A stretch of DNA of 64,000 bases from a bacterium (GCA_029558515.1 JAKQEM010000032.1:3987-67986), one strand, 5' to 3'. Counted from the stretch's first letter, positions 5,195 to 33,726 are shown. Made by a program: numbers and translations. The notes: generated by a model from the letters alone, not told the origin.

Positions 5195-5196
5195 AG

Positions 5197-6801: not shown

Positions 6802-6858
6802 GGGCGGCGGGAAGTGGATGTTTCGCTGAATGCATCGCGCGAACAGTACCGCCTACCT

Positions 6859-6885: not shown

Positions 6886-6933
6886 GCTTCCGCCCCTTAA
6901 AGGTGACACGTAGCCTGAAAGATCACAAGACTT

Positions 6934-7149: not shown

Positions 7150-7160
7150 TCCACCCGCCC

Positions 7161-8552: not shown

Positions 8553-8655
8553 GGGAATGGGAGAAGGAAATATACGACACAAGGGATGCCGCAGCTTCCT
8601 CCTCATATCTAGGCGAAAGACCCTTTCGGCTGCCCTCCAAACCCTTTCAAATTGC

Positions 8656-10170: not shown

Positions 10171-10188
10171 GGGGTGGGAGGGAAGAAA

Positions 10189-11754: not shown

Positions 11755-12202
11755 GGGAAGAGGGGGAAGAAAGTGAAAGATCCTCATCGGTAATGGAGGC
11801 AAGTCGCAGGGCTTCGGTGATGGCGGCTTCCTGCTCGGGCGTGAGCGCGTCGTTCTCCTGTTTGATCCGTGCCGTCACCTCGAGCTTAGAGTTGTAGTTG
11901 GGGTTTCTGTGCTTAAGCCAGTACGTAATAGCGCCGAGGTTGCCGTCGCGGATGAAGGTCAGAAGCTGGCTCTCGGCCATGTCGTTCACGAGCGCGGTGC
12001 CATGCTCGAGCGCTTCGTCTGCGGCCTTGGCGAACTCGGGATCCTCCTGTCGCCAGCGGTAGTATGTGGGGCGGCTGACACTTGTCTTCTCGCACGCGGC
12101 GGAAACGATGGGAATTTTCTTGAGCTGCTCGAGGAGCAGCGCCTGCTCTTGGACTCTCCGCGCCTCCACCGTGGCCTTGTGCTTGTCGTGGCGGTTGTTC
12201 AT
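11699..12202 (-). CDS. Terminase small subunit-like HTH protein
   Basis: IVSAACEKTSVSRPTYYRWRQEDPEF...AITYWLK; directly upstream of and overlapping TerL. Confidence 0.7.
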   Translation of the reverse strand: MNNRHDKHKATVEARRVQEQALLLEQLKKIPIVSAACEKTSVSRPTYYRWRQEDPEFAKAADEALEHGTALVNDMAESQLLTFIRDGNLGAITYWLKHRNPNYNSKLEVTARIKQENDALTPEQEAAITEALRLASITDEDLSLSSPSSHAKGEPLPGAEAPAADAA

Positions 12203-12972
12203 CGTTTAACGGGGGGATGGATAATGGCCGGGGCGATGCCCGTCGCTTTCTCGAAGCGTTCGCAGATGACACAGCAGTAATCGGGGGAAAGCTCGATGCC
12301 GATGCAACGGCGTTTCGTTTCCTCGCAGGCGATCATGGTTGATCCTGACCCGAGGAAAGGGTCATAGACGAACTCGCCGATCCGCGTGCCGTTGAGGACG
12401 AGGCGTCGCAGGAGCCCCACGGGCTTGCAGGTTGGATGGAGCGGGCTGCGGGCGGGCTTTGGATGCACGAGGACGCTTCTGTCGGCGGAGCGGATGCGTT
12501 CATGTGCGCCGTGCCAGCCGAAAGCAATCAACTCATGCTGAGGATGGTGGTCGAGCCGTCCGGCGATCGGCTGGGTTTTGACCCACACAAGCAACTGCGA
12601 GAGCCGGAACCCGGCGTCGGTCATCCCGTCGCGCAGCGCGAACACCATCCGGTCGGCGTTGAAGCAGTAGAGGATATTCTTGGGGCTCAGGTGCGTCTTC
12701 ACCGCCTCCAACCACATTGCGGTGAACTGGCGGTACTCGCTGTCGCTCTGCAGATGATCGTTCTTGATATCCGCATGCCGTTTTTTGTGCCCAGCGAATT
12801 TCTCCTTCGATGCGACGTAATCAATTCCATACGGAGGATCCGTCAGGATTTGGCGCACCTTCGCCTTGCCGATGATCTTCTTCACGAACGCGGCATCGGT
12901 GCTGTCGCCGCAACCGAGAACGTGATCTCCGAGCCGCAGGATCGTGCCCGTGGTGATATGAAGTTTCTTCAT
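12199..12972 (-). CDS. DNA methyltransferase (N4/N6 family)
   Basis: LTDPPYG, HPTCKP, YDPFLGSGST. Confidence 0.88.
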   Translation of the reverse strand: MKKLHITTGTILRLGDHVLGCGDSTDAAFVKKIIGKAKVRQILTDPPYGIDYVASKEKFAGHKKRHADIKNDHLQSDSEYRQFTAMWLEAVKTHLSPKNILYCFNADRMVFALRDGMTDAGFRLSQLLVWVKTQPIAGRLDHHPQHELIAFGWHGAHERIRSADRSVLVHPKPARSPLHPTCKPVGLLRRLVLNGTRIGEFVYDPFLGSGSTMIACEETKRRCIGIELSPDYCCVICERFEKATGIAPAIIHPPVKR

Positions 12973-14255
12973 GGGTGTTTGAGGGAAGGGGCAATGCAGA
13001 GCGCCTTCGCGCGCTCGACGATGAGGTCGCAGAAAATTGGCTCGACTTCACACAGGAACGCCCGACGCTTCATCTGATGGCATGCCGCGAGCGTCGAACC
13101 GCTCCCGGCGGTGGTATCAAGAACGATATCCCCGGGCTTCGTGCAGCGCCGGAGCGGCTTCTCATGCAGGGAAGGGGGTTTCTGCGTTGGGTGCTGGTAC
13201 TCGCTCGAGTGCAGCCGCTGGCACGCCCAAATCTGAAAGAGGTCGAAGAGATCGTCTATCTGCCGCTTGCCCGATCCCACCTCTTTATCCAGAATTTCGG
13301 AGAGGTTCACGTTCGTTGGATGGAGGTAGGGCTTGCCCACGGTGCCGTAAACCGCGATCTCCATGCATTTGTTAAACGCGATCTGAGGCGTGAGGGAGAA
13401 GTTGCCTTTCACCCACGCGCACAGGCGGCGGTGCGTAATTCCTAGCTCCCTATAGAGTTCCTGCACGATCCATACCCAGTTCTCATCGCACCACAAAAAG
13501 CAGTGGGCATCGTCGTGCGCGGCTGCGAGCGCGTTGCTGAGGATCGCCTTCAGGAACGCCCGGTATTCCTCCTCACCCTTGGCATCATTGGTCTTGCCGC
13601 CGTAGCGCATGACGCCGCCGAGTCCTTTGTCGTAGGAAAGTCCGATGTTAAAAGGAGGGTCAATGTAGAACATTGATGCCTTGTGCTTCCCCATGAGCGT
13701 GCGGATGGCGGCGGGGTCGGTGGCGTCGCCACACAAAAGTCTATGGGGTCCGAGTTCCCAGAGATCCCCGGGCTTCGTCTTGGGTTTCTTGATCTTCTCC
13801 AGTTCCTTCTCGACGTCGAAATCGTCATCCTCCGTTTCGAGGAGACCGTCCCACGCCGCCGCCAGTTCGTCGGAGGTGAAGCCGGCGTCAAGGAGGAGAT
13901 CCGAACCGAACTCTTTGAGCGCTTCCCAGTCCCACTCTCCGGTCGAGCGATTGAGCCGGAGGTTCAATTCCTTCTCCCGTTCGATACTCGGAATGTGGAC
14001 GTACACCACGGGCACCGTCTTCATCCCGAGCCGCTTTGCCGCTTCGAGTCGCATGTGCCCGCCGATGACGACGTTCTTGCGGCTGGGAGCGCCATTCACG
14101 ATCACGGGATCGACGAACCCGAACCGTGAGAGACTCTCCATCAGTGTTGCAAGCTGCCCCTCGTTCCACTTGCGGGGATTGTAGGTGGCGGGACGCAGCG
14201 ATCCGATCTGCTCCTGTACGATGGTGAGTGCGGAAGAATGTTTGCGCGGAGGCAT
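12969..14255 (-). CDS. ParB-like N-terminal domain + DNA methyltransferase fusion
   Basis: YNPRK...FGFVDPVIV...GGHMRLEAAK (ParB/Srx); YIDPPFN, HPTQKP, DTTAGSGST. Confidence 0.88.
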   Translation of the reverse strand: MPPRKHSSALTIVQEQIGSLRPATYNPRKWNEGQLATLMESLSRFGFVDPVIVNGAPSRKNVVIGGHMRLEAAKRLGMKTVPVVYVHIPSIEREKELNLRLNRSTGEWDWEALKEFGSDLLLDAGFTSDELAAAWDGLLETEDDDFDVEKELEKIKKPKTKPGDLWELGPHRLLCGDATDPAAIRTLMGKHKASMFYIDPPFNIGLSYDKGLGGVMRYGGKTNDAKGEEEYRAFLKAILSNALAAAHDDAHCFLWCDENWVWIVQELYRELGITHRRLCAWVKGNFSLTPQIAFNKCMEIAVYGTVGKPYLHPTNVNLSEILDKEVGSGKRQIDDLFDLFQIWACQRLHSSEYQHPTQKPPSLHEKPLRRCTKPGDIVLDTTAGSGSTLAACHQMKRRAFLCEVEPIFCDLIVERAKALCIAPSLKHP

Positions 14256-14338
14256 GGGGCGTTTGGAAAACTGCCCACGTTATATGGAAAAAATCGTGGC
14301 ACGGATGACGGCCCTCACAGGTGCCATTGTGCTCCCAC

Positions 14339-15478
14339 TTATTTTGTTTTCTTCCTCCTTTTTGGCTTCCTGTTCAAATTTCTCAGTTTATCAGAACACT
14401 CTTCTCTTCCGCAAGTCTCTTGGTTCGGTCTGTTCTTTCTGGGGATGAAGGCACGATGGCAGAAACGGCAATGCGGTCCTATCCAGCTTCCGACAATGTC
14501 TTGCACGGTCACGACTTCGCCCGTGATGAAGTACAGAAACCAGTTCAAAATCCATATCATGTGATTCGTGTCTTCGGCTTTCACAAGGGCGGTGTCATCG
14601 AGATTCCGCAAATACACCCTGCTGCTCTCACGAGAGATAGTTCCTTCATTCAAATGGCTCTGTTGCGCCAGCCAGAAGCGCCAATGTTGCACTTCCTGCA
14701 CGGTGAACGAATGTTTCTCCAACAATTGTCGCGCCTCTTTTTCCAAGCGCGGCTGCTCATGCAGCTTGTAATATGATTTCAACTCGCCCCTCAGCCCTTT
14801 TTTGTCTTTCTGGTAGTCGGGCAATAGTTTTTCATATTGCTCTGTCATCCGTCCGCTGGATATGTCCTTCAATCCCTCCACCTCAACGTACAGACGAAGA
14901 AAATCATTCAGCTCCGCCAATCTCTTTTTCATATGAGAGCGTATGGATCGTTTCTCCTTCGGGAAAGCGAGCGCTTCCTTTTCGTGCTTCAGGATAATTT
15001 TCACTGCCAGCATCTGGCGCTTGTCGTAGAGCAACTCGAAGTTTCCCTCGAGCAATTTCTTATTCGTGGTCCATCCGCCGACGTGCGGACGCGCTTTCCA
15101 TCGAAAATATTTCTTCGTCGAAGGAAAATCGTACTCATTCGCGTGCCAGCGGTCGAGCCAGTCACCACCCATCCACAGGGATTCCATGTCATACCATTTC
15201 TTGCGATCAATCTTCATCGGCTGAAATTTCTCGAAATCGTGAGGATAAATCCAAATCCACTGGTCGCGCCCTTGATGATGGGTATAGATGCGGGCGTACT
15301 CCACGATGCCAAGGAAGAGACGCAGCGCCGGATACAGCAGTTTCTGCTTGTGCCACTCTTGCAGGCGTTTTTCACTGATGCGCAGATTATTTTTGTCGCA
15401 GTAACTCACGAACGAACTCTTCGTCAGAAGTGTTGATTGGCGGAAAGCCGGTTGAGTGTCGGATGTTGGGAGTTTCAT
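14339..15478 (-). CDS. Hypothetical protein, possible N-terminal HTH and C-terminal Cys zinc finger
   Basis: 379 aa; C-terminal CRFC...TCGREEC followed by a basic tail. Confidence 0.6.
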   Translation of the reverse strand: MKLPTSDTQPAFRQSTLLTKSSFVSYCDKNNLRISEKRLQEWHKQKLLYPALRLFLGIVEYARIYTHHQGRDQWIWIYPHDFEKFQPMKIDRKKWYDMESLWMGGDWLDRWHANEYDFPSTKKYFRWKARPHVGGWTTNKKLLEGNFELLYDKRQMLAVKIILKHEKEALAFPKEKRSIRSHMKKRLAELNDFLRLYVEVEGLKDISSGRMTEQYEKLLPDYQKDKKGLRGELKSYYKLHEQPRLEKEARQLLEKHSFTVQEVQHWRFWLAQQSHLNEGTISRESSRVYLRNLDDTALVKAEDTNHMIWILNWFLYFITGEVVTVQDIVGSWIGPHCRFCHRAFIPRKNRPNQETCGREECSDKLRNLNRKPKRRKKTK

Positions 15479-15607: not shown

Positions 15608-18505
15608 ATGCCCACTCCACGATCGACTCCCGGCGATGACCCTATCAAGCAAGATCCTAAGGAGAATCCGGAATTTGAAGCGCCTGAAGAAGTCGTGGGA
15701 GGTCAGGGTATAGAAACGACGCGTGAGGATATTTCTTCCAGGGCAAAAGAAGCTGTGGAATTGCCAGCTGATCGCACAGTCCTTGATGTACCCATTGAAT
15801 TCTGCGCAGAGGGCAGACGAATCGAAACGCTGAATCGCGGCGGCGCGTATGTTGTGCGCGTGAATGCCGCTCGCTTCCGAAGCCGCGAGGAAGCCGAGCG
15901 GGCGGGTATCGTCCAAGCCGCTTACCTACGCTCATTGCGCGACCATTTACAGACAGAAACCGGCAAGGCATTCGAGGCGCTGCAATCTTTCGGCTCGGCT
16001 GCACACAGCGCGTTGCGCCTGAAAGGAGTAAAAACACTCTCGGAATGGGAAAAAGAGGAGGTATCGGCTCTCAGGCAGCCATCTCAGACGCCCCTCACGC
16101 TCGCGCAAGTATTTGACCGAAGCGTTGAGCGCTACATCCTGACGGGAGAGATGCCGCAGGATATTCCAAATGAAGTGCGCCGAGCGCTCGAAAAAATCCC
16201 CGGACGACAAGGCAAGAGCGCTCTTGATTTCATCGCGCAGGAAAGCCGCTCACTCCGGAGCAGCGCAAAACTCTACGAAGAACATATCGTTCCTCTCCGC
16301 GACAATCTGAAGGCGGAGGATGGCGAGAAACGTATGACCGAGCGCGATGACTACGTCCCGCCGAACTTCAAGGGTGAGCAGGAACCGCTCGATCCGGAGA
16401 GCGTGCGGTGGAGGGTCGAGCCGTTCGTCGGCGGTTATTATCGCCAGCAACTCTACCGGTACGATCCGGCTGCGCAGAGAATCGTTGCGGAGCCGACCGA
16501 GAAAACGGAGTTTACGCTCAACGATCCTCCCGAGGACATTGATGAATTGCCGCTCTATACGTTTCACGGTGTCTACGTCCCCGGCGAGGAGAATCGTATT
16601 CCGTTTCCAGAAAAGGGATTGCCTCTTCCGGATTCCCTGAATCCGAAGGAAGCATTCATACTTATGCGGAGTTCTGCGGGTGTTTTCTCTCTTGAAGAAA
16701 GGCAGCAGGGAACGGCGGCGGAACCGGTACAATATTCATTCAATTTTGTCCTCGCTCGGAGCAGCGATAACAGGATTGATGATGAACCGACTGACGCGGA
16801 TCTCCTCACTATCGATGGTCCGCTTGATGAAACCGCTGAAGAATTGATTGCAGGCCTGAAACAGAATGCCTTTCTGAATAAAGCGGATCGAGGGCGATCC
16901 CTCGTCTTTGCCACTCGCAAGCAATTTGTGTATCCGAAGGATGAGGAAATGTCATCGATGGATGAACGGTATCGGGCTGCCGGAATGAATTTGCATCATG
17001 AAATGGCGGATTTGAAGCTCGCCGACTGCCACTGGAGCAATATCCGCGCGTCCGATCTCGGGCGTAGGCTGGAGGTCCCCATGCGTACACCGAGCGGCTT
17101 TTTCGTGACCCGCCATCCCGATGTAGATTTTGCTCCTATTGGCGGTATTGGTCATGCATGGAGCGAGCGGTGGGACGAAACGTCACGGCAATGGATTCGC
17201 ATGGACGCTACCCCGCCGAAACAGGACGAGGATGAAGAGGAAGACGAGAATGACGAAGATCAGCCCGCTTCAGCTCCAGCGGCTGCGGGTGAAAGAGAGA
17301 CAAAGGTCGGCGTGAACGATGAAGAAAATGAGATAGAAGAAAGTGGTGTGCTCGAAATGAACGAACAGGAAATGGAGCGGCTCCTAGAACTCGTAACGCG
17401 CTCCGGCCCTTCGGCGGAGGAAGTAGCGGATGCGCTTTTCCGCGAGCGCACAAATGTTTCGGCGTCCGATTGGAAGAAGGTGGAAGGATTTGTCGAAACC
17501 GTGAACGCCGGCAAAGTACCGGAGGAGTCGCAGATTCCCGAAACACCGGACATGTTGCGGCATTTCCGCGACCGCATTACGGCTCCCAAGGGAACGCTCG
17601 AGCGAGAATGGCAAAAACTCTTCTGTCTTATCTGCACGCACCGCTTGGTCCACCGTCGCAAATTCCCCGGCAACGTCCGTCAGAGCGAAAGCACGACGGG
17701 ATTGGAAAACCCCGTCGATGCCTACATCGACATCATGGCCGACGAACCAGATCCGATGGGATTCGGGATCGATACGAGGAGGCCGGAGACCATCCTCGAC
17801 GTGAAGGCATTCGAGGAGGATTCCCTCGTCGATCTCACGTCGTCCATGAACGATACGGACGGCTACGGCAATGTGATGCGCGTCGAGCAGAAAAAAGTGG
17901 TGCTTTCGCTTCTCTATCATCTCATGGAACTGAACGCGGAATTGAACGATTCACGCGTCCGATCCCAACTGCGCACGCCACTCAAGATCCGATCCGAGGT
18001 CTACTCCATCCATGGCCAAGGCAAGAAGAACCAAGGCCAATTCGCGCGTCTCAAAGGGGCTGAAGAAGACATCACTGAAGCGGCGCTCGTGCATCTTGCG
18101 CGGGAACTCGATCAGACGACGCCCGGCGCGGGCGACTTCCTCAGCGCGTTACGCGCATACCGCGAAGGGTTGTCTCCGGAAACTCTGGAGCGTATTCGTT
18201 CGGGGGAACTGGTGAAAATGCTTACAATCTATTCCGATGGCAATCACTGGTGCAGCAACTGCGGCTCCGAATCCTGCAATGTGCAGATCCACGCGGAGCG
18301 TGTACGTGCCGCGCAGGAGGAAATTCGTGCCATCCGCGACCTCGGTATTATCGTGCAGGGAATCGGTTTCACGAAGAAAGCGGAGGCGATCAAGCTCATG
18401 TGCCAAGACCCGAAGGAACCCGGCGGTGCAGTTGTCGTCAATGACGTTTCCAGAGCCATTGCTGCCAGACACGCGATGCTGACAAAGCATTTGCAAAAAC
18501 TATAA
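15608..18505 (+). CDS. Transglutaminase-like (Cys-His-Asp) domain + C-terminal vWA domain protein
   Basis: LADCHWSN ... GHAWSE ... WIRMDATP triad; acidic linker; vWA MIDAS-like VDLTSSM, LTIYSDG, IIVQGIGF. Confidence 0.8.
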   Translation: MPTPRSTPGDDPIKQDPKENPEFEAPEEVVGGQGIETTREDISSRAKEAVELPADRTVLDVPIEFCAEGRRIETLNRGGAYVVRVNAARFRSREEAERAGIVQAAYLRSLRDHLQTETGKAFEALQSFGSAAHSALRLKGVKTLSEWEKEEVSALRQPSQTPLTLAQVFDRSVERYILTGEMPQDIPNEVRRALEKIPGRQGKSALDFIAQESRSLRSSAKLYEEHIVPLRDNLKAEDGEKRMTERDDYVPPNFKGEQEPLDPESVRWRVEPFVGGYYRQQLYRYDPAAQRIVAEPTEKTEFTLNDPPEDIDELPLYTFHGVYVPGEENRIPFPEKGLPLPDSLNPKEAFILMRSSAGVFSLEERQQGTAAEPVQYSFNFVLARSSDNRIDDEPTDADLLTIDGPLDETAEELIAGLKQNAFLNKADRGRSLVFATRKQFVYPKDEEMSSMDERYRAAGMNLHHEMADLKLADCHWSNIRASDLGRRLEVPMRTPSGFFVTRHPDVDFAPIGGIGHAWSERWDETSRQWIRMDATPPKQDEDEEEDENDEDQPASAPAAAGERETKVGVNDEENEIEESGVLEMNEQEMERLLELVTRSGPSAEEVADALFRERTNVSASDWKKVEGFVETVNAGKVPEESQIPETPDMLRHFRDRITAPKGTLEREWQKLFCLICTHRLVHRRKFPGNVRQSESTTGLENPVDAYIDIMADEPDPMGFGIDTRRPETILDVKAFEEDSLVDLTSSMNDTDGYGNVMRVEQKKVVLSLLYHLMELNAELNDSRVRSQLRTPLKIRSEVYSIHGQGKKNQGQFARLKGAEEDITEAALVHLARELDQTTPGAGDFLSALRAYREGLSPETLERIRSGELVKMLTIYSDGNHWCSNCGSESCNVQIHAERVRAAQEEIRAIRDLGIIVQGIGFTKKAEAIKLMCQDPKEPGGAVVVNDVSRAIAARHAMLTKHLQKL

Positions 18506-18518
18506 AATAGTGTATAAT
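18491..18518 (+). promoter_or_regulatory. Putative sigma70 promoter for the AAA-VR gene
   Basis: TTGCAA-N16-TATAAT ending 16 nt before ATG 18535. Confidence 0.45.
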
Positions 18519-18534
18519 TATTAGAAACTATCCT

Positions 18535-21339
18535 ATGCCTACCACGAAGCCAACCGGCCTCCCGCAAGATCCTCCCGAGAAGGGCGGTCGTGCGGAATCG
18601 AAGCAGGATGAACCCTCGCGCAACATCGGTCTTGTGCGCGAAGCAATGCGGCTTGGATTCGATTTGTCCTCCCTTCGCTTGGAGCAATTCGCTCCCGAGG
18701 AACCGGTTTCATCGAACGGGTCGCCGCTTGGCACGGAGGAGATCAGGCAGAGAGCGCTTGAAACGCTCCACCTTCTCGATGAATACAATCGCGTGAAATT
18801 GGAGCCGAGCAAGGCGTCCCAAGGGCAGGTCGATGACATGCTCGGTGATGTCGAAAGTCTGGATGATTTCATCGCCGCTCTCGACACCAGTAAAGAGAAA
18901 TCCAAGGCAAAAACAGAGGAACCCAAAGCAAGATTCCGAAGGGAAGAACTGGCCGGAAAAATCAGGGAACTTCTTTCCGAGCCGCAGGTGTATCAATTCC
19001 TGCAGCAATCACTTGCGAAGGAAGCCGAGCGCTTCAAAGCGGTACAGCCACTTCTTTCGCGGCTGCACAAGCTGCGCCAAGTACAGGACATCGCTTTCGA
19101 GCGCATCCATACGCTCTCCCTTGAGAGCAAACGCAGACATGGCAAGATCGTAGGATCCGTGCAGACAACTATCGAAAAACTCTCGCGCCTCAGCAAAGAG
19201 GCGGAGGAAGAGGAGCAACGCTTGGAGGAAGAAGCGACCCCCTTGGAAAAAGGATGGATCGCTTCGCAGCGCCTCCTCGAATATAAACAACAGATGAAGA
19301 CGGATCGCTTCGTCATGGCACCGAGCCGCCGCGCGATTCTCGATGAGATGATCGCCAAGCTCGGCAGCAAAGGACGGGTGCTTCTGCTCGGTTCCAACGG
19401 AACGGGAAAGACGGAGCTTGCGGCGAAGGCGTTGAAGCTCGTTTCCAACGGGTATCACCTCGTGCCATGGCAGGAGGCCACGACCGGACAGGACATCTTC
19501 GGGCGGCAAGAAATCCGCCGCCAGAACGGCCATGTAGAGAGCGGGCTGCGCCCTGGCCCCATGACCCGCGCCATCGAAGCAAAAGAAGGAGAACCGGCAG
19601 GCGTGCTCCATGATGAGTTAAACCTCGGGAGCCTCCGCACGATTTACCTCCTGAAGAAGCTCTGGAACAGCCGTCCCGGGCAGGAGGTGGATGTGCCCGT
19701 ACTCGATGAAAAGCGCAAATTGCCCCTGAACTATGCGGAGGTCTATACGGCAAACCCGAAGGATGAGCGCACGAGCAACCGCGAAGAGTTCGATGCGGGC
19801 ATCACGCGCGTTCTCGGCGGCATGAACGTGCCGTTTCTGAAACAGGATGAGCAGGAGCAGATCATTCTCGCCAAGCTCATCGACGAGAACGGTGTCCTGC
19901 ATCTTTCGAGGAGCGAAGCGCAGACGATCCGCGAGCTTGTAGCCAGCGCTGTCATGACGCAGCAATGCTTCGACCGTGCGTTCGCGGATTTGGGCGATGA
20001 AGCCCTCGGAGAAATCAAGAACATGACGGGCATTTCCGATTTGCGCCTCACAAAGAAATTTCTCGACCCGGGACGGCTCATGGAAATGTTCGATACCTAC
20101 GAGCAAAAGAGAGCTGAAGGCATGAGCGTCGCGGAATATCTTTCAGCAGAATTGAAGAAATTCCTCGCAGAGTTTGAGGTGGACGAAGAGAGAAACATCG
20201 CGCTCGCCATTCTGAAATTAAAGGGTGTTCTTACACCGGACAGCACGGCGACGGATCCCCATGTGCAAGTGATGACGAAGCCCGGCGAGAAGCCGTTCCT
20301 CCTCCCGTCCGAACTCGCATTCATCGTGTCTTGCGATGATGGGTTGGACGACTCCGACGTGGAATTCGATCAAAAGGAAGTGAGCGTTGAGGAAGTGATT
20401 GCCTCAGACGGGGCGGAGGTGCTGGATCTTCTCAATGCGCGAAATCCCACCGTCATTCAGGCTACCAAAATCAAGCGCATGCTGGAGATGCAGGGAACGT
20501 CGCAACAGGCCATTGACCGCGCCCGCCGGACGATGCTCGAAAAGTGCGGCGAGGGGCACTTCTTCGGCCCAGAAGAGCTGATGAAGGCATTCCCCGGACT
20601 CAAGCTCGCCCCGAAAGATCTGCCGCCCCTCCCTCCAGACGACGAGATCGAGCGCCATGCTGCCTTGGGACACACGCTCCGTCTACGCGTGAGCACCGCG
20701 CCAGACGGATCGAAGCTCACGATCCCGAAGATGCGCGAACTGCTGCAGGAAAGCTTCGCTCGTAACAACGACGGAGAGGTGCTCTATAGCCCCAATTCCG
20801 ACTGGAAGCTCGCCTCGACGTTCTACACGGACGAAGTGCCGGAGATGGCATGGGCGTTCACGTCCGATGAAGTCCTACCAGACTCCACAAGTAAGAACCA
20901 TCTGCAGCAGACTCAAGTACTTGCCGACTATGCTCGTTCCACGCTCTTCAAGAAAGGTCAGCTGCCGCGCGAGTACCAGGAGGCCATACGGGAGTTTGAA
21001 TCTCAGAAAGATGAGATCCAGCAATTGATGGGCAGCGACTGGAAGGCGGCAGCAGGACGTCTCGCGGGACTCAAGATCAACAAGCTTATGCGAGGCAACC
21101 CCGCAGAGACTGTGCAGGATCTCCTTGTTACTTTCCAAAACAATGATCCCAAGAGCCGAAAGCGCCTGCTTGAAAAAATGTGGACATGGACGGCAACCCA
21201 AAGCTCGGACGGCTGCCTCGTCTACGTCGGTAACTTCGGTCCGGGCGGCGTGAGCGTCGGCTTCTGGCGCCCGGACGACTCGGATGACGGTCTCGGGGTC
21301 GTCCTCGCTCGGAAGTTCCCTCGAACCTTGCGTACTTGA
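18535..21339 (+). CDS. DGR target 1: MoxR/AAA_5-type ATPase fused to a C-terminal variable (C-type-lectin-fold-like) domain
   Basis: Coiled coil; Walker A GSNGTGKT, Walker B VLHDELN, YTANP; the 3' end contains VR1. Confidence 0.88.
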   Translation: MPTTKPTGLPQDPPEKGGRAESKQDEPSRNIGLVREAMRLGFDLSSLRLEQFAPEEPVSSNGSPLGTEEIRQRALETLHLLDEYNRVKLEPSKASQGQVDDMLGDVESLDDFIAALDTSKEKSKAKTEEPKARFRREELAGKIRELLSEPQVYQFLQQSLAKEAERFKAVQPLLSRLHKLRQVQDIAFERIHTLSLESKRRHGKIVGSVQTTIEKLSRLSKEAEEEEQRLEEEATPLEKGWIASQRLLEYKQQMKTDRFVMAPSRRAILDEMIAKLGSKGRVLLLGSNGTGKTELAAKALKLVSNGYHLVPWQEATTGQDIFGRQEIRRQNGHVESGLRPGPMTRAIEAKEGEPAGVLHDELNLGSLRTIYLLKKLWNSRPGQEVDVPVLDEKRKLPLNYAEVYTANPKDERTSNREEFDAGITRVLGGMNVPFLKQDEQEQIILAKLIDENGVLHLSRSEAQTIRELVASAVMTQQCFDRAFADLGDEALGEIKNMTGISDLRLTKKFLDPGRLMEMFDTYEQKRAEGMSVAEYLSAELKKFLAEFEVDEERNIALAILKLKGVLTPDSTATDPHVQVMTKPGEKPFLLPSELAFIVSCDDGLDDSDVEFDQKEVSVEEVIASDGAEVLDLLNARNPTVIQATKIKRMLEMQGTSQQAIDRARRTMLEKCGEGHFFGPEELMKAFPGLKLAPKDLPPLPPDDEIERHAALGHTLRLRVSTAPDGSKLTIPKMRELLQESFARNNDGEVLYSPNSDWKLASTFYTDEVPEMAWAFTSDEVLPDSTSKNHLQQTQVLADYARSTLFKKGQLPREYQEAIREFESQKDEIQQLMGSDWKAAAGRLAGLKINKLMRGNPAETVQDLLVTFQNNDPKSRKRLLEKMWTWTATQSSDGCLVYVGNFGPGGVSVGFWRPDDSDDGLGVVLARKFPRTLRT
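21202..21318 (+). repeat. DGR variable repeat VR1
   Basis: 117 nt ungapped match to the TR; 17 mismatches at TR adenines, 10 at non-A positions. Confidence 0.92.
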
Positions 21340-21420
21340 ATGCTTGATCTTCCTCGAATCCTTTTTCCTTGACGCATCCGCTACTGACGAATTTTCACCT
21401 CCTATAGTCCTTCACTCCCG

Positions 21421-22443
21421 ATGCCCCGCGAAGCTCTCCACTCGTTCATCCGGCAACTCCAAGAAAGTACCGCCTACAGGGATCACGTCGGCGTGCGCAC
21501 CGTCGTGGATGAGACCGTCCGCAGGATTGCCGCTTTGCCGGAAGAAGGTGCCGGAGCATTGCTCAGAGAAGAAATTCATACGCTTCGAGATCAGCTCATT
21601 CCGCTCTTGCAGGGAACGAAGGCTCCGAAGAGGAAGGAGAAAAAAGGAGAAGCAGTCAGTCCCAAGGACGCGGAAGCGATCATGGGCAAAGACCGTTTCT
21701 TTGGCATCGAGGCTGTCCGCAAAGCCTTTCCTGGTATCACGCTCAAACCCGAGCACATTCCCTCTATTCCATTTTCCAAAGAAGATCTTGAGCGAGCGAA
21801 GGAACTCGGAGACAGCCTACGTCTGCGCATAGATAAGGCGCCCGGCAAAGGGAAACTCAACATGCAGAAAATGCAGGAATTGCTGCAGCCGGTCTTCGAT
21901 CAGAGCGGCGAAGGGAAGGTGCTCTACGATACCGATTGGTACGAGAACGAGGACTTCTTCACCGAAGCGCCGGAACTCTGCTGGGTCCTTACGTCTGACG
22001 GCGTCATTCCCGATTCCGAGGACAAAGATTACCTCGAACAGACGGAGCATATCGCGGAGTACCTCCGTGACACCGTGTACCAAGGCAAGAAGCTGCCGCA
22101 GCAGTACGCCGAGGCGATCAAGGAACTGGACGCACAAAAGGATGATATTCGCCAACTTATTGATGACGATAATTGGGAGAAGGCGGCAAAGAGACTTGCT
22201 GATCTCACACTCAATAAACTTACGCGCCGCATCCCCGTCGAAGTGCTGTACGACATGCTTGTGTCATTCCAGAACGGCGGCAAGCGCCATCTGGACGACA
22301 TGTACGATTGGACGTGCGTCCGTAGCTCGGACGGCGGCCTCGTCGACGTCGGTGCCTTCGTTCCGGGCGGCGTGCACGTCGACCACTGGCGCCCGCGCAG
22401 CTCGAATGACGCTCTCGGGGTCGTCCTCGCTCGGAAGTTCTGA
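21421..22443 (+). CDS. DGR target 2: stand-alone paralogue of the target 1 C-terminal domain
   Basis: 340 aa; shares FFG.E...AFPG..L, LG..LRLR..., GxVLY, VxPDS..K..L.QT with target 1; ends in VR2. Confidence 0.88.
   Translation: MPREALHSFIRQLQESTAYRDHVGVRTVVDETVRRIAALPEEGAGALLREEIHTLRDQLIPLLQGTKAPKRKEKKGEAVSPKDAEAIMGKDRFFGIEAVRKAFPGITLKPEHIPSIPFSKEDLERAKELGDSLRLRIDKAPGKGKLNMQKMQELLQPVFDQSGEGKVLYDTDWYENEDFFTEAPELCWVLTSDGVIPDSEDKDYLEQTEHIAEYLRDTVYQGKKLPQQYAEAIKELDAQKDDIRQLIDDDNWEKAAKRLADLTLNKLTRRIPVEVLYDMLVSFQNGGKRHLDDMYDWTCVRSSDGGLVDVGAFVPGGVHVDHWRPRSSNDALGVVLARKF
22324..22440 (+). repeat. DGR variable repeat VR2
   Basis: 117 nt ungapped match to the TR; 17 mismatches at TR adenines, 11 at non-A positions. 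Confidence 0.92.
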
Positions 22444-22842
22444 GCCTTGCGACCTTGAAGGCTTGAGCCTGATCGAGTCCTTTTTCCTTGAAGCATCCGT
22501 TACAGGCGATTTTTGCACTGGATGCCACTGCAATTTGCATCATAGGATGCGATTGCGGCCCGTTCTTGCAGTCGGGGTTACGGCTCCGGCTCACGGTCCG
22601 CCTCATCTTTGCAGCCACTGAAGCGGTCAGCGTAGGTGGGAACCCGCCGGAATACCGTGTCTCCACGGAGCACAGTAGTGAGCGGGCTTAGATGCAGAAG
22701 GAACTTCTTGCTCATTCTCAGACTCGGTATCGTCCCGTTCTGCGGGACGGTTGCGGGCGAATCAAATTCAGGGGAAAGAGGCTATAGGCCGCAAGGCAGT
22801 AAACCTCGATCCCCGGTGTTCCGGACGGGAATGGGCAGCAAT

Positions 22843-22959
22843 AGCTCGGATGGCAACCTCGTCAACGTCGGCAACTTCGATCGTGACGGCGTGAACGTCA
22901 ACAACGATCAACCTGACAACTCGAATGGCAACCTCGGGGTCGTCCTCGCTCGGAACTTC
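22843..22959 (+). ncRNA. DGR template repeat (TR)
   Basis: Intergenic, AAC-rich copy of the VRs (agc tcg gat ggc aac ctc gtc aac ... cgg aac ttc) located between the targets and avd/RT. Confidence 0.9.
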
Positions 22960-22966
22960 CTTCATG

Positions 22967-23007
22967 GTAACCCAAGGGGCTCCCGTCTCAAGAGTCCCTT
23001 AGGTTAC
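22967..23007. other. Long hairpin 3' of the TR, overlapping the avd stop codon
   Basis: GTAACC-c-AAGGGG-CTC ... GAG-TCCCTT-a-GGTTAC. Confidence 0.6.
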
Positions 23008-23354
23008 GCATCGCGCGTCGACTTGATCCACCCGCCGAGCATGCGTCCGACTTCGTCAACCATCTCCTCGATTTGCGCATACTTCTTGAGATCGATTGCC
23101 TTCACATCCTTGGCGAGGCGCAGAAAAACGCGAAGGACGTTGAGCTTGAGGCTGACGCGTTCGAGCGGCTCCAACTTCTGCGGCTTGCGCATCTGGCTCG
23201 CGAGCAGAATCCCCTCGAGCACTTCGAGCATGAGAGCTTCGCAGCGGGGCCAGAGCGCGATGCGATCCTGCTTGGATACGGCAGCCCGCAGCTCATAGAG
23301 CTTCTTTGTCAGATCGTATGCCCGCTTGAAGATTGGAATATCGAGTTCTTCCAT
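23004..23354 (-). CDS. avd: DGR accessory variability determinant (Avd, four-helix bundle)
   Basis: 116 aa; IPIFKRAYDL...LRVFLRLA...EVGRMLGGWIK; located between TR and RT. Confidence 0.88.
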   Translation of the reverse strand: MEELDIPIFKRAYDLTKKLYELRAAVSKQDRIALWPRCEALMLEVLEGILLASQMRKPQKLEPLERVSLKLNVLRVFLRLAKDVKAIDLKKYAQIEEMVDEVGRMLGGWIKSTRDA

Positions 23355-23367
23355 GACGACATGAAAT

Positions 23368-24417
23368 ATGAAAGTGCACAAGCATATCTTCGACCGGCTC
23401 ATCACGCCAGAGCACCTGTTCCGTTCTTGGGAGGAATTCCGGAAGGGTAAGGGGTCGCGGAAAGACGTGCAGGAGTTCGAGTGGAAACTCGAGCAGAATA
23501 TTCTGTCTCTCAGCCGTGATTTACGAGACAGGACATACAGGCATGGTCCGTACTCGGCGTTCACCATATGCGATCCCAAGCAGCGTCGCATCCATAAGGC
23601 AACCGTTCATGACCGCGTTCTGCACCACGCCATATTCTCTCTGCTTAATCCCATCTTCGAGCCGACGTTTATAGCGCATTCTTTTTCTTGTCGTGCGGGA
23701 AAGGGAACGCATAAAGCCGTGACAGCACTCGAGAAGTGGTTGCGGCAAGTCAGTCGCAACTGTCGGTATCCCTGCTTCGCTTTGAAGTGTGACATTCACC
23801 AGTTTTTTGCTTCCGTCGATCACAAGATCCTTCTCTCTATCCTGAACCGGAAGGTGAAGGACGCGGATATCATGCGCTTGCTCACGGAAGTCGTGGGGAG
23901 TTTTAGCAGTACAGAATTGGAAAACGAGAGGCCAAGAGGAATCCCCATCGGCAATCTTACGTCGCAGCTCTTTGCGAATGTATATCTGAATGAGTTTGAT
24001 CAGTTCATGAAGCATTCGCTGCGCATCCGCCATTATATCCGTTACACCGATGACTTCGTGATCGTGGATACTGACAGAGACCGGCTCGAGGCGTTGATCC
24101 CGATCATAGGCAAATATCTCAGCGAAGAACTACGGCTGAACCTCCATCCTCGCAAAATCATCCTTCGTAAATTCGGTCAGGGCATCGATTTCCTCGGTTA
24201 TGTCATTCTCCCACACCATCGGGCATTGCGTACACGGACGAAACGGCGCATGTTCCGTAAGCTGAAGTCGCGGGTGGACAGTTTCAAGACGGGTGCGGGC
24301 AGTGAATCTTCGGTGGAATGTTCCCTTCAGTCCTATCTCGGAGTTCTCTCACATGCGAATGCTCTCTGCTTGAGCGATCAACTGCAGAATCAATGCTGGT
24401 TCTGGCTGCGGGACTGA
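23368..24417 (+). CDS. DGR reverse transcriptase
   Basis: PKQRRI...DRVLHHA, KCDIHQFFASVDH, GIPIGNLTSQ (DGR-type SQ), YIRYTDDF, GIDFLGY. Confidence 0.95.
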   Translation: MKVHKHIFDRLITPEHLFRSWEEFRKGKGSRKDVQEFEWKLEQNILSLSRDLRDRTYRHGPYSAFTICDPKQRRIHKATVHDRVLHHAIFSLLNPIFEPTFIAHSFSCRAGKGTHKAVTALEKWLRQVSRNCRYPCFALKCDIHQFFASVDHKILLSILNRKVKDADIMRLLTEVVGSFSSTELENERPRGIPIGNLTSQLFANVYLNEFDQFMKHSLRIRHYIRYTDDFVIVDTDRDRLEALIPIIGKYLSEELRLNLHPRKIILRKFGQGIDFLGYVILPHHRALRTRTKRRMFRKLKSRVDSFKTGAGSESSVECSLQSYLGVLSHANALCLSDQLQNQCWFWLRD

Positions 24418-24431
24418 ATAAAATTGGGTGC

Positions 24432-25133
24432 ATGAATCTGGAACAGGCAATACAAACGCTGCAATCCGTCCTCCGGAAGGAGCAGCCTTCCCGCTTCAGC
24501 AGCTCATGGGTCTACGCCCATGCGCCCCGCGTCTACTTCTACATCTGGCGCAACGTTCGCACGGAGCTGGGTGATGTTGACTGGGATCTGGTAACGAGCA
24601 AATTGGAGAAGCCATTCCAGAGGCTCTGGCATCCCCGGCGCAGGTGCAGAAAATCACCCTATCGGGACACCCATGAAATGCGAACCGCTCTCGGTGAGCA
24701 TTGGGAAAAGCGTTATGTCTTCCTCCATGCCCCGACGGAAGTCGAATGGAGAGAGCGCGATTGGATTGCCGCTATCCTCGCCCGGTTATCGCAGAAGGGA
24801 AACCTATGTGCGCAGGAGGAACTCCTCGAACTCCTGCATTTCATGGTCGATCACTGGATGGAACGCCGTCCGGAGTTGAGGAAGTGGAGGGTTCATCCGA
24901 GCGATCTTGATCACACCTTGAAGCAGTGCGTTCGTTGCTACCGGTACACCGGCTCGTTCGCCATCTATCTCCTCATCACGCTCATGAAAGCCGGAAGAGG
25001 CTTGCCGTACATTCGATGGTCATCACTGGATGCCACGATCCTCGATAGCGATCTGCGTCGGATCGATAGTGTCGTGCAGGATCCGGAGACGGGAGAGTTG
25101 TGCATGGCGGAACTGCACGCCTATCACGTCTGA
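24432..25133 (+). CDS. Hypothetical protein directly after the RT; C-terminal half sigma-region-2-like
   Basis: 233 aa starting 14 nt after the RT stop; LSQKGNLCAQEELL...CVRCYRYTGSFAIYL. Confidence 0.65.
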   Translation: MNLEQAIQTLQSVLRKEQPSRFSSSWVYAHAPRVYFYIWRNVRTELGDVDWDLVTSKLEKPFQRLWHPRRRCRKSPYRDTHEMRTALGEHWEKRYVFLHAPTEVEWRERDWIAAILARLSQKGNLCAQEELLELLHFMVDHWMERRPELRKWRVHPSDLDHTLKQCVRCYRYTGSFAIYLLITLMKAGRGLPYIRWSSLDATILDSDLRRIDSVVQDPETGELCMAELHAYHV

Positions 25134-25190
25134 AACAAATCAGGTGCCATTTTCTTTTATCAGGCAAGCGATGGTCGTATCATCCGTCGC

Positions 25191-25421
25191 ATGGCATATC
25201 GGCGATATCGCAGGCGCAGGCAGTACACGTTCAAGCAAGAGCTGGGCAGCCGGTTGTACTATCTGATTCTTCTGCTCCTTGTGATAGGGTCCTACAAAAT
25301 CTGGGGGCTGCAAGTGTTCGATGAAATCTGGATTCTGATTCTTGGTGCAGTGAGTTACAAACTCGTCGGATTCATCCTTCGATCCACGGGTATCTGGCGT
25401 CCCGTTCGTCCTCGGTGGTGA
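25191..25421 (+). CDS. Small membrane protein
   Basis: 76 aa; Arg-rich N-terminus followed by two hydrophobic helices. Confidence 0.5.
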   Translation: MAYRRYRRRRQYTFKQELGSRLYYLILLLLVIGSYKIWGLQVFDEIWILILGAVSYKLVGFILRSTGIWRPVRPRW

Positions 25422-25576
25422 ATGCATTGAAAATGGCTTATATAAGCCAAAATATTCATTTTGTCTAGTTCCGAGACACACCCCCAAAGTACTGTCTCAA
25501 ATGTCTCAAATGACCCACCGACCCGCTTGCCTAGACCCCTCTAAAACGACCCCCTCGAAAACCCCTTCAAAACTCC

Positions 25577-27100
25577 TCACGGATCAGGAATAAGAGTTGT
25601 CAGACCCCGTCGTTCTGCCACATCATTTTGCACAGGTTCAAGGTTCTTAATCGCTTCATACACAAGCGAAAGTTTAGGGGTTCGCTTATTTTCTAAAACA
25701 TCAAAGGGAATTCCATCGGGTAATGCTAGTCGTTGTAAGCGGTTTTGGTCTTCCACATCAGCTTTTTCCCAGAGTTCGCTTGCATGTTTCATGTAGTGCC
25801 TACAATAAGCCAGAACCTTCTCCGCTTTGTATTCCGTCCATTCATGATCATTGCGAGTTGTAGTGGCCTCGTTAATTTGTTCGGTTTTACGATTAAACAC
25901 TTCCTCCCAACTTGAATATAAGGCGGGGTTATTCCTACTCAATTTCATCATTTCCATTGCTTCAAGGCGTTCCTCTTTTAAGGTCGTAAGTTCATTAGCC
26001 GCTTCAATACTAATTCTACTTAGTTCAGAAAATTCATTTTCCCATGCATCAATCGCAATTGCTTCAAATAAAGCCAATAAGCCCTCTTCGGGGCATATTT
26101 CTTTGAGGAAGCCTTTAAACAACGTGTGCATGTCGTCGGCCTTCATTCGGAATTTGCAGCCAATGATTCCGCAGTCGTAATAGTGGTGTTTCTATTTTTT
26201 CATTTTGCCCGTAGAGCCATAGCCTCTTAATGGCACATTATGGGTTGGGCAGATTACAAATCTGCGAAGCGGTACGGCAGGATTTAGCTTTCTTCGGCGG
26301 CGAACCAAGCGATCTTCCTTGCCTTTGTTTAATGTTCTTTGAAGCGTATGCCATTCATCGGCAGTAAGAGGGCTTTCCCATTTAGCAGCGATCAGCCTAC
26401 CCCCTGTCCATTTTTCACGATTGAGGCCGCCGTATACGGGGCTACGGAGTAGTTTAAGCCATGATTGCGGCGATACGGTATTCCGTATGCGTATTTTTTT
26501 CTTTCTATCATGCGGGTCATGTTTTACGCTTTCCCTCATTAAAAATCCTTTTTCTGCCAATTCTTTTGCTACATCGGTTGGCGTGTAGATACCCGATAAC
26601 TGCTTACGTAGGCCATAGCAAAGTAATGACCATTGTTTTTCATCAGGGTCGGGCGCAAGTGTGGGTTTGTATATAGGCTTGCCGTCAGGCGCATAACCTA
26701 CCTGCTTTTTGATGTTAATAAATCCTGTTGGCGCAGGTCTGCACCAATACCCTTCGGCAGTCAGGCTTATTTCTGCACCAATGGTATTAATGGTGCGAAT
26801 GCGATTATCGTAACGCGCACGGGAGGCCAATATGCCCTCCATAAACTCTCCGCTTGGGCTGTCATCAATCATTTCTCTTGCCGATTCCAAACGTATGCCA
26901 CTCCGCTTCAACATTTCTTTGAACTCGTAATACTCCCTCATGCCGCCACGCGAAAATCTATCAATTCTATTAATGATCACTACCTGAACGTTCTATTTAT
27001 TTTTAACGCAGAATTCTAAGGCTTCTTTAAATTCCACTCTTGCTTTGATGGGCGGGGGATATGGTTATCCCTCGGCAAGTTGGGTCGCTCAAAGAGTACC
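25577..27100 (-). pseudogene. Large serine recombinase pseudogene
   Basis: Single frame ...EFCVKNK*NVQVVIINRIDRFSRG ... GKMKK*KHHYYDC...; internal TAG stops and a decayed N-terminus. Confidence 0.8.
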
Positions 27101-33308: not shown

Positions 33309-33343
33309 AAATGATAAATGCAAAATGCTAAATGCTAAATGGT
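33309..33343. repeat. Heptamer tandem repeat (AAATGNW)x5, left arm of cassette 1
   Basis: AAATGAT AAATGCA AAATGCT AAATGCT AAATGGT. Confidence 0.75.
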
Positions 33344-33378
33344 ATGTTACAGAGCAGATCAGCCACCATACTGTGTGC

Positions 33379-33726
33379 ATGAATCCAATACGCGATCAAT
33401 CGTACACGTTCGCCATCCATATCGTACAATTCTGCACCAAACTGCAAGAGCAAAAGGAATATGTCCTCAGCAAACAATTATTACGCTCCGGCACGAGCAT
33501 AGGTGCAAATATCGAAGAGGCTCAAAAAGCCCAAACCAAGAAGGACTTTACATACAAGTGTTCTATCTCATTAAAAGAAGCTTACGAAAGCAGATATTGG
33601 CTGCGACTGCTTTGTGATAGCGGTATTGTTACCTCACACACTACAGCATCACTCCTTGAAGAAATCGACCAAATCATTCGAATCCTTTCTGCGATCGTCA
33701 AAACAGCAAGCACTCAGACGGAATGA
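33379..33726 (+). CDS. Four-helix-bundle protein (23S rRNA IVS-protein family), antisense within the pyr cluster
   Basis: LSKQLLRSGTSIGANIEEAQ...SLKEAYESRYWLRLL. Confidence 0.9.
   Translation: MNPIRDQSYTFAIHIVQFCTKLQEQKEYVLSKQLLRSGTSIGANIEEAQKAQTKKDFTYKCSISLKEAYESRYWLRLLCDSGIVTSHTTASLLEEIDQIIRILSAIVKTASTQTE

Follow-up and report, generated by a model that had tools for sequence, protein, structure and literature searches.

A duplicated DGR cassette in a Peribacteria genome diversifies the tip of a MoxR-clade ATPase encoded beside a transglutaminase-like vWA protein

Introduction

DGRs of CPR bacteria whose targets are fused to AAA or Midasin-like modules have been described (Wu et al., 2018, PMC5758913; Paul et al., 2017, as cited in Dore et al., 2024, PMC10907252), and the locus presented here raises the question of what such a hypervariable ATPase might act upon, and with which partner. 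The locus lies within a 64,000-nucleotide stretch of DNA (hereafter the window) from the 1.3 Mb genome of a Peribacteria (CPR) bacterium, a 49-contig assembly with 0.42% contamination. An initial annotation interpreted the locus as a candidate hypervariable intracellular sensor-effector system with an uncharacterized mechanism. The sensor-effector interpretation is plausible, but its novelty is smaller than was claimed, since AAA-fused CPR targets and DGR-diversified MoxR-vWA conflict systems, the latter including rare transglutaminase-like peptidase effectors, had already been reported (Kaur et al., 2020, PMC7159879; Dore et al., 2024). The gene order MoxR/DUF58/transglutaminase is likewise described as a widespread theme (PMC6803598). 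Cross-cassette templating, a duplicated island of ~22 kb and a conserved non-coding element upstream of the TR are new relative to the initial annotation.

Organization of the locus

The features of the locus are listed in Table 1. ORF1, ORF2 and ORF3 are separated by gaps of 29 nt (ORF1-ORF2) and 81 nt (ORF2-ORF3) and are followed by the TR, a minus-strand avd and a DGR-type RT, so that the ORF coordinates and repeat positions confirm the proposed arrangement of three co-oriented genes directly 5′ of a TR-avd-RT array. The end originally assigned to the system, 25133, includes an unrelated overlapping ORF (24318-25133), and the block with a paralogous counterpart stops at 24408.

Table 1. Coordinates of the features of the locus and of the adjoining island, counted from the first nucleotide of the window.
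Feature	Position	Strand	Details
ORF1	15608-18505	+	965 aa; upstream-most of three co-oriented genes
Transglutaminase-like core of ORF1	16829-17212	+	~aa 408-535; C474, H516, D533
Asp/Glu-rich disordered linker of ORF1	17228-17362	+	aa 541-585; pLDDT < 50 at 541-576
vWA/MIDAS domain of ORF1	17456-18502	+	aa 617-965
ORF2	18535-21339	+	934 aa
AAA+ module of ORF2	19300-20235	+	aa 256-567; Walker A G286-T293, Walker B D360-E361
C-terminal variable-protein domain of ORF2	20497-21336	+	aa 655-934
VR1	21201-21318	+	3′ end of ORF2
Conserved element 3′ of VR1	21323-21395	+	copy at 22442-22514, 3′ of VR2
ORF3	21421-22443	+	340 aa
VR2	22323-22440	+	3′ end of ORF3
Conserved non-coding region upstream of TR	22541-22841	+	88-93% identity between cassettes
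TR, type I (TR_A)	22842-22959	+	28 adenines, 27 in codon positions 1 and 2
Hairpin between TR and avd stop codon	22967-23007	+	fold z -1.82
avd	23004-23354	-	116 aa; bAvd PF22296 E 9.1e-16
DGR reverse transcriptase	23368-24417	+	349 aa; RVT_1 E 1.2e-18, PADLOC RT E 4.4e-55
Rest of duplicated island	2269-15478	-	Pfam, PHROGs; collinear copy elsewhere
Island, N6_N4 methylase	5197-6801	-	Pfam
Island, serine integrase	7161-8702	-	phrog_95 integrase E 6.1e-60
Island, two terminase-large-subunit-like paralogues	8656-10170, 10189-11802	-	phrog_38 E 3.1e-70
Island, other genes		-	206-aa gene, ResIII helicase, 167-aa HTH protein
Island, other genes		-	methylase, ParB-methylase, 379-aa gene without known function

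The RT is intact, has a 77%-identical paralogue on another contig and bears what we take to be a DGR-typical motif. The avd gene, on whose strand the initial annotation was silent, is divergent from the RT gene, the start codons lying 13 nt apart, and its strand and spacing are the same in seven related loci. The locus therefore contains the RT adjoining a TR and the accessory Avd that characterize a DGR. The elements 3′ of VR1 and VR2 form a direct repeat with 81% identity, and they are 92% identical between cassettes against a background of ~70%; no significant hairpin was found in the DNA downstream of VR1 and VR2 (z-scores of 0.73 and -0.24). The region upstream of the TR contains blocks that are invariant in six loci, as well as helices with compensatory changes, and probably represents the 5′ portion of the DGR RNA. 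The hairpin that follows the TR keeps its pairs across loci with changes on both sides. An Rfam search over 21000-25500 found nothing.

As the initial annotation stated, ORF1-3 lack an evident signal peptide or transmembrane segment: the maximal 19-residue Kyte-Doolittle value is below 1.0 in each protein and the N-termini are hydrophilic, which supports a predicted cytoplasmic location. This bears on the usual proposal for DGR targets of CPR bacteria, in which variable proteins are exported or displayed and attach the episymbiotic cell to its host. Such a role would suit an organism with so small a genome and accords with the host interaction ascribed to CPR/DPANN DGRs in PMC10907252, but it is very improbable here, given the hydropathy of all three proteins and the intact Walker motifs of ORF2, an AAA+ protein that needs cytoplasmic ATP.

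Adenine-specific diversification and templating between cassettes

A second cassette, 75% identical to that of the window, is located on another contig and contains its own TR (TR_B). VR1 differs from TR_B by 18 mismatches, 16 of them at adenines, whereas its comparison with the window's own TR yields 28 mismatches, 11 of which lie at non-adenines. For VR2, 16 of the 17 mismatches to TR_B fall at adenines, as do 18/19 in a further comparison with TR_B; in the opposite direction, the window's TR (TR_A) differs from VR2 of the other-contig cassette by 17 mismatches, 15 at adenines. Measured against the correct TR, the adenine bias has a hypergeometric p of 1e-9 to 3e-13, which is the TR/VR relationship of a DGR, and the same pattern of adenine-site mismatches occurs in the related loci L008-L012 and L018. 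These comparisons indicate that the VRs of the window were templated by TR_B of the second cassette rather than by the window's own TR, and that the latter in turn templated one VR (VR2) of the other-contig cassette. Since the target-recognition sequences are common to both cassettes, all four VRs are open to rewriting from either TR.

Diversification is also observed between populations. Comparison with a 96%-identical ORF2 from another sample shows 40 residue differences, of which 14 lie inside the 32-residue VR; for a 94%-identical ORF3, the VR, also of 32 residues, holds 13 of the 20 differences; the differences between ORF1 and a near-identical protein are evenly spread. In a between-sample comparison of VR2 based on the contigs of four runs, in which uncovered parts of runs X2-X4 were not counted as evidence, eight of the 10 listed differences are at adenines of the window's TR, and a ninth is at a position that is adenine only in TR_B. 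The DGR rewrites ~17 codons at the C-terminal tips of ORF2 and ORF3, which allows for some 1e16 peptides. In another sample, the same ORF2 and ORF3 contain type-I residues at the diagnostic codons; therefore, the TR type switches between strains.

The apparent templating in trans could instead reflect misassembly at repeats, or a past recombination that replaced a TR. The fragmented assembly, the breaks at VR1, VR2 and the TR in Logan contigs of the likely source sample, and the identical 3′ core that the repeats have in common would all allow this. However, a type-II VR1 is present on both ORF2 bodies among the listed contigs, so that a foreign-type VR stands beside a type-I TR under any re-joining, and the TR type at ORF2 and ORF3 differs between strains. 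In addition, identity between the cassettes is only ~70% in the flanks upstream of VR1, which leaves no long conversion tract and also led us to reject gene conversion between the cassettes as the source of the foreign-type VRs. We therefore regard an artefact or a replaced TR as quite unlikely, and retrohoming in trans as the better account. The two blocks are not strain variants of one locus, as they are only 72-75% identical and lie on different large contigs of an assembly with little contamination.

The diversified ATPase and its partner

ORF2 consists of a helical N-terminal region, a MoxR-clade AAA+ module, an acidic disordered linker and the C-terminal VR-bearing domain. The AAA_5 model matches it with 37.5 bits (cut-off 22), and both Walker motifs are invariant; together with the position of VR1, this agrees with its annotation as an AAA_5/MoxR ATPase carrying VR1 at the C-terminus. 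ORF3 had been proposed to be a free paralogue of that C-terminal domain carrying VR2, and its residues 89-340 indeed align with residues 672-928 of ORF2 at ~50% identity, downstream of an 88-aa N-terminal part of its own. The ORF3 family comprises 65 clusters from several CPR groups, in which Pfam families are absent except for AAA_5 in a single AAA-fused form (P0244). Sequence comparison of the VR domain with Pfam and PDB yielded no match (13 VR-domain sequences gave only chance-level Pfam matches at E up to 10), and look-ups of ORF3 and the ORF2 tail in the ESM Atlas returned only unnamed CPR clusters, together with Lcl_C, which was discarded as a relative because its score (0.75) was too weak for use. 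With regard to a possible C-type-lectin fold of this domain, the FGE-sulfatase model PF03781 has no match in the genome. PF07603 matches only an unrelated gene on a different contig.

In ORF1, N-terminal beta/helical domains are followed by a transglutaminase-like core, an acidic disordered linker, a helical region and a vWA/MIDAS domain. The window's ORF1 reaches no Pfam transglutaminase or vWA model in a Pfam scan, PF01841 remaining unmatched at E up to 1; the same model matches 15 of 22 aligned relatives (best E 1.5e-9) and is present in 12 of 32 clusters in a precomputed table. In the 22-sequence alignment, C474, H516 and D533 are invariant and occur in that order, and the core resembles TgpA (6g49) with a Foldseek E of 1.8e-7. 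The MIDAS residues D742-x-T744-x-S746, T837 and D877 of the vWA fold are also invariant. The calls of a Cys-His-Asp transglutaminase-like domain and a vWA domain are thus supported. A profile search of the ORF1 family against PDB sequences gave nothing meaningful (best E among the ORF1 and VR-domain searches, 0.26 and 0.31), and the matches listed for ORF1 by VIA were all vWA, hence uninformative on the transglutaminase part.

Linkage of the two genes was the first of three refuting tests that the initial annotation had named, and the locus passes it. In 12/12 related loci with downstream sequence (L007-L014, L016-L018 and L031; L015 alone ends too early), an AAA gene lies directly 3′ of the ORF1 homologue. 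Identity to the window's ORF1 drops to 29-31% across these loci. The RT and a minus-strand avd follow in all seven loci with enough sequence to show them. Relatives of ORF1 occur in 18/301 genomes of the class and in 1/40 other genomes of the same family.

Together, ORF1 and ORF2 resemble a MoxR-vWA couple such as NorQ/NorD, CbbQ/CbbO or Midasin. Their best structural matches are the maturation factors NorQ/NorD, CbbQ and Rea1-MIDAS, at a sequence identity of only 12-18%. Complex prediction for the ORF2 AAA module (255-600) and the ORF1 vWA domain (660-965) scored 0.00 in both runs, which speaks neither for nor against contact. These matches, as well as the frequent proximity of MoxR, DUF58 and transglutaminase genes (PMC6803598), would fit an ordinary chaperone or remodelling machine of the NorQD, CbbQO or MoxR-DUF58-transglutaminase type, which would be no immune sensor and whose substrate range would be widened by the DGR, for example for maturing or cross-linking variable cell-envelope or symbiosis proteins. 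Against this, the module is missing from 39/40 other genomes of the family and is located on a mobile island. NorQ/NorD, CbbQ/CbbO and Rea1 (Midasin) are moreover fixed-substrate factors without a hypervariable domain, thiol enzyme or retroelement, and we know of no housekeeping maturation system that needs ~1e16 variants. We consider such a machine an unlikely explanation.

A duplicated mobile island

The cassette is cargo of a ~22 kb island with integrase and terminase-like genes (Table 1), and the island has a collinear copy on another contig (72-75% nucleotide identity). In L008, L010 and L011 the cassette is flanked by relatives of island genes; in L009 none of these genes lies within 10 kb of it. 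No capsid, portal or tail gene was recognized with PHROGs among 25 scanned proteins, and there is no tRNA gene at the island ends within the window.

The module might serve the island rather than the host, in counter-defence, exclusion of competitors or take-over of helper-phage or host proteins, with the hypervariable ATPase tracking changing targets to the benefit of the element. The serine integrase, the two terminase-like genes, the HTH protein and the methylases of the block, its occurrence as a whole in two copies, the neighbourhoods of the three related loci and the patchy distribution all agree with this, and the island context also fits such a function. The missing virion genes and the surroundings of L009 argue against it. 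Mobile islands commonly carry host-protective systems, and the context therefore does not discriminate. Service to the element is, in our judgement, improbable.

A possible sensor-effector module

The host sensor-effector interpretation begins with ORF1, which would be co-transcribed upstream of ORF2. The hypervariable tip would bind a changing cytoplasmic ligand, such as a phage or other invader protein. The ATPase ring would transmit this binding by acting on the MIDAS protein, so that the thiol peptidase or cross-linker of ORF1 is released or activated, and ORF3 would supply a second specificity. That an active DGR cassette on the ~22 kb integrative island diversifies a MoxR ATPase tip coupled through the vWA domain to the ORF1 thiol enzyme is a proposition to which we give about even weight. 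Several observations count against a sensor-effector: PADLOC defence models match neither ORF1 nor ORF3, and ORF2 only weakly (E 0.011 and 0.042); the window's ORF1 falls below the Pfam models for both of its domains; the VR domain is without sequence matches, and residues 876-934 of the AF2 model of ORF2, including the VR, have pLDDT < 50; and PMC10907252 points out that host interaction, not conflict, may be the role of some CPR/DPANN DGRs. The VMAP family is absent among Pfam matches of ORF1-3 and their neighbours, so that in these scans the locus shows no such third component and does not match the VMAP ternary conflict system of Kaur et al. (2020).

The closest parallels are nevertheless the DGR-associated VMAP-type systems of cyanobacteria and gammaproteobacteria (Kaur et al., 2020; Dore et al., 2024). 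In these, too, one neighbourhood encodes a DGR-diversified ligand-binding domain alongside a MoxR-clade ATPase, a vWA protein and an effector of the peptidase type; their targets are cytoplasmic, and trans templating between DGR loci of one genome is reported. They differ in that the variable domain is on the vWA protein or a separate sensor instead of being fused to the ATPase, the effector is on the VMAP protein instead of being a thiol enzyme fused to the vWA protein, and the hosts are multicellular instead of a small-genome CPR bacterium. The AAA/Midasin-like CPR targets (‘UVR4’ of Wu et al., 2018; Paul et al., 2017, via PMC10907252) share the CPR host and a VR at the C-terminus of a P-loop/Midasin-like AAA protein, and L010, one of the related loci, belongs to a groundwater Peribacteria genome like those surveyed. 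The passages on these targets in PMC5758913 and PMC10907252 say nothing of a conserved transglutaminase-vWA partner or a free paralogue, nor of an avd on the minus strand, carriage on a mobile island or a pair of cassettes that template each other; the present loci may already be catalogued in Paul et al. (2017) or in survey supplements. In MoxR/DUF58/transglutaminase (TgpA-like) operons, a MoxR ATPase is also encoded with a vWA-like and a Cys/His/Asp transglutaminase-like protein (PMC6803598). The ORF1 core matches the periplasmic domain of TgpA, the solved fragment, whereas ORF1 itself is predicted to be cytoplasmic. In the Bifidobacterium operon described in PMC6803598, the transglutaminase Tgm is a polytopic membrane protein with a gene of its own, apart from that of the vWA-like protein, and there is no DGR; ORF1 is soluble and unites both domains.

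Implications

More speculatively, and with considerable doubt, CPR DGR targets with an AAA-borne variable tip might form half of a split Midasin-like machine, to be completed by an acidic-linker MIDAS protein with a thiol peptidase or cross-linker; the whole would be a mobile, protein-level ‘anticipatory immune receptor’ with templates pooled between cassettes. If true, the DGR would write the receptor, each receptor gene being rewritable from either of two scaffold flavours, and ATP-driven remodelling would fire the enzyme. AAA-fused targets are reportedly the commonest kind of CPR DGR target, and neither a partner nor an output has so far been attributed to them. A partner gene in which catalytic and MIDAS residues are recognizable, and which is conserved down to 29-31% identity, provides concrete sites for mutation (C474, E361 and D742) and links CPR DGRs to the MoxR-vWA conflict systems of multicellular bacteria. 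The reciprocal TR use by two complete cassettes and the strain-level change of TR type indicate that DGR cassettes within one genome can act as a shared pool, and the mobile-island context suggests a route by which such modules spread.

Organization and protein products of the cassette

The closely spaced genes ORF1, ORF2 and ORF3 all lie upstream of the DGR core, and a repeat search identified three copies of an approximately 120-nt unit in the window, namely the variable repeats VR1 and VR2 and the template repeat TR (see the table below). The start codons of the divergent avd and RT genes are 13 nt apart, an arrangement kept in 7 related loci; this spacing implies either that each promoter lies inside the other gene or that the TR RNA runs antisense through avd. 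The initial annotation had extended the region to position 25133, an end that was abandoned because the 271-aa ORF located there falls outside the cassette and the block of paralogy with another contig stops at 24408. This ORF overlaps the 3′-end of RT by 100 nt, and a 45%-identical relative adjoins methylase and helicase genes in the related locus L011; a truncated serine recombinase gene lies beyond it, and the G+C content falls to 40% at 26–30 kb of the window, beyond both RT and the ORF. Elsewhere in the window, two free-standing 23S_rRNA_IVP genes (Avd-like four-helix bundle) stand among pyrimidine-synthesis genes, far from any RT, and a UvrC homologue carries a GNAT acetyltransferase domain (aa 560–645) inserted between its UvrC domains.

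Positions of the cassette elements and of other features in the window
Feature	Position	Strand	Size or match
ApeA-like protein with HEPN domain	947–2266	+	ApeA_NTD1 E 2.1e-31
ResIII helicase	2906–5275	-	
N6_N4 methylase	5197–6801	-	
Terminase-large-subunit-like genes	8656–10170, 10189–11802	-	
ORF1	15608–18505	+	965 aa
ORF2	18535–21339	+	934 aa
VR1	3′ end of ORF2	+	copy of ~120-nt unit
ORF3	21421–22443	+	340 aa
VR2	3′ end of ORF3	+	copy of ~120-nt unit
Conserved non-coding region	22541–22841		
TR (non-coding)	22842–22959	+	copy of ~120-nt unit
Region 3′ of TR, with hairpin	22960–23007		
avd	23354 down to 23004	-	bAvd E 9.1e-16
RT	23368–24417	+	RVT_1 E 1.2e-18; PADLOC RT E 4.4e-55
ORF beyond RT	24318–25133	+	271 aa
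Truncated serine recombinase	26192–26980	-	
23S_rRNA_IVP genes	33325–33726, 34799–35236	+	
UvrC homologue	45267–47729	-	

ORF1 itself had no match in Pfam, NCBIfam or PADLOC; PF01841 was matched by 15 of the 22 aligned members of its family, and the family alignment shows C474, H516 and D533, as well as the MIDAS set D742-x-T744-x-S746, T837 and D877, to be invariant. The predicted model of ORF1 (pLDDT 77.1) gave Foldseek matches to TgpA (E 1.8e-7) and the NorD vWA domain (E 2.8e-8), and residues 541–585 form a disordered Asp/Glu-rich stretch N-terminal to the MIDAS part. The family comprises 32 clusters, those with names being from Peribacteria or Peregrinibacteria, and an exhaustive search yielded 136 representatives with E values of 0.001 or below. 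Weak transglutaminase-core matches in four genomes of the same class (G022, G114, G117 and G213) are broken by TGA codons only (3–11 each), as expected if these lineages read TGA as a residue. ORF2 matches AAA_5 above the curated cut-off, and the Walker A and B motifs of its family are invariant (15 sequences). Residues 89–340 of ORF3 are about 50% identical to residues 672–928 of ORF2; the family of this VR-bearing domain (65 clusters, several CPR groups) occurs mostly as a free protein of ~320 aa and sometimes fused to an AAA ATPase. The domain itself had no match among Pfam families or PDB sequences from which a fold could be named. Neither a hydrophobic segment nor a signal-like N-terminus was found in any of the three proteins, bearing out the earlier view that they lack signal peptides and TM segments, and it is very improbable that the variable proteins serve in surface attachment.

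Linkage across related loci

Two scans of reference genomes, together with the genome's own paralogue, provided 13 related loci. An AAA homologue lies directly after the ORF1 homologue in all 12 loci with downstream sequence, so the supposed coupling of the TG-vWA gene to the AAA-VR gene extends to related genomes, and this across ORF1 identities to the window's protein down to 29–31%. Farther downstream, all 7 loci with enough sequence contain RT and a minus-strand avd, and the number of free VR-domain genes per locus is one in most, two in L011 and zero in L018. One of these loci, L017, is a 2.2 kb contig with an ORF1 end and an AAA start at 62–68% identity, binned in a Kiritimatiellia genome, which is probably a binning error.

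Diversification and reciprocal templating

Of the 28 adenines in TR, 27 occupy codon position 1 or 2, and 8–9 codons are AAC, a content that makes about 1e16 peptides possible. Nearly all differences between VRs and their own TR in the related loci L008–L012 and L018 are at adenines, and differences between VR2 and contigs of other samples fall chiefly at TR-adenine positions. Compared with a 96%-identical protein from another sample, ORF2 shows 40 residue differences, 14 inside the 32-residue VR, and 13 of the 20 differences between ORF3 and a 94%-identical protein lie in the VR; differences between ORF1 and its 90%-identical relatives are distributed along the whole protein.

The source genome (1.31 Mb in 49 contigs, 99.3% complete, 0.42% contamination) carries a second cassette on another contig, with 75% DNA identity to the first, and no third RT was found in this genome. 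The TRs of the two cassettes (type I in the window, type II in the second) differ at 14 positions. Three VRs match the type-II TR, namely the window's VR1 and VR2 and the second cassette's VR1 (2, 1 and 1 non-adenine mismatches, respectively); these three show 11–12 non-adenine differences from the type-I TR, and VR2 of the second cassette matches the type-I TR (2 non-adenine mismatches). A long gene-conversion tract between the cassettes was ruled out, since they share only ~70% identity immediately 5′ of VR1. VR1 is of type II in the ORF2 bodies of both cassettes, so that joining the contigs differently at the repeats would still leave at least one cassette inconsistent with its own TR. At the codons diagnostic of TR type (P903R, W911A and R912Q; P315R and W323D), the same ORF2 and ORF3 from the other sample compared above have the residues of type I, indicating that the template type changes between strains. 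Templating in trans was reported earlier for incomplete loci of one gammaproteobacterium (PMC10907252), whereas here it is reciprocal and involves two complete cassettes, for which no report was found in the literature searched. A further contig of the genome (L019) contains a 560-aa open frame with an Lcl_C domain (PF07603, E 1.1e-32), a domain type that occurs in some DGR targets.

The non-coding region upstream of TR is 88–93% identical between the cassettes and contains blocks invariant in six loci, including a 36-nt block complementary to both TR flanks; pairing in its other helices is kept via compensatory changes, and the hairpin 3′ of TR also covaries. The region probably belongs to the DGR RNA, and it occupies the place upstream of TR where avd sits in the standard DGR layout.

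Proposed function and mobile context

The ATPase ring would act on the MIDAS protein, as the analogous NorQ/NorD, CbbQ/CbbO and Midasin systems suggest. It is rather unlikely that the module is instead a chaperone with a broadened substrate range. Under the conflict reading, which draws on an analogy with the DGR-linked MoxR-vWA systems of PMC7159879 and PMC10907252, sensing would fall to the variable tip, with the thiol enzyme providing the output. Such DGR-plus-MoxR-vWA systems are already published, as are AAA-fused CPR DGR targets (PMC5758913); the literature searched contained no mention of CPR AAA targets with a conserved transglutaminase-vWA partner, and Paul et al. (2017) or supplements may list the present loci.

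The paralogy with the other contig spans positions 2269–24408. Besides the cassette, the duplicated block contains a ResIII helicase, an N6_N4 methylase, a large serine integrase, an HTH protein, two further methylases (one ParB-fused), a 379-aa gene without assigned family and two terminase-large-subunit-like paralogues (phrog_38, E 3.1e-70). The helicase and N6_N4 methylase genes overlap as a type III restriction-modification-like pair; the terminase-like genes are adjacent and about 56% identical, beside the integrase and the 167-aa HTH protein; and the ApeA-like gene lies just beyond the left end of the block. No capsid or portal gene was recognized among the 25 proteins scanned, and the block could be a prophage island that is satellite-like or degraded. 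That the module's function serves the island itself is a minority possibility. Relatives of ORF1 were detected in 18 of the 301 genomes taken from the class, and 1 of 40 further genomes from the organism's own family had such a relative; this patchy distribution, together with the island context, indicates that the module is accessory cargo of a mobile island.
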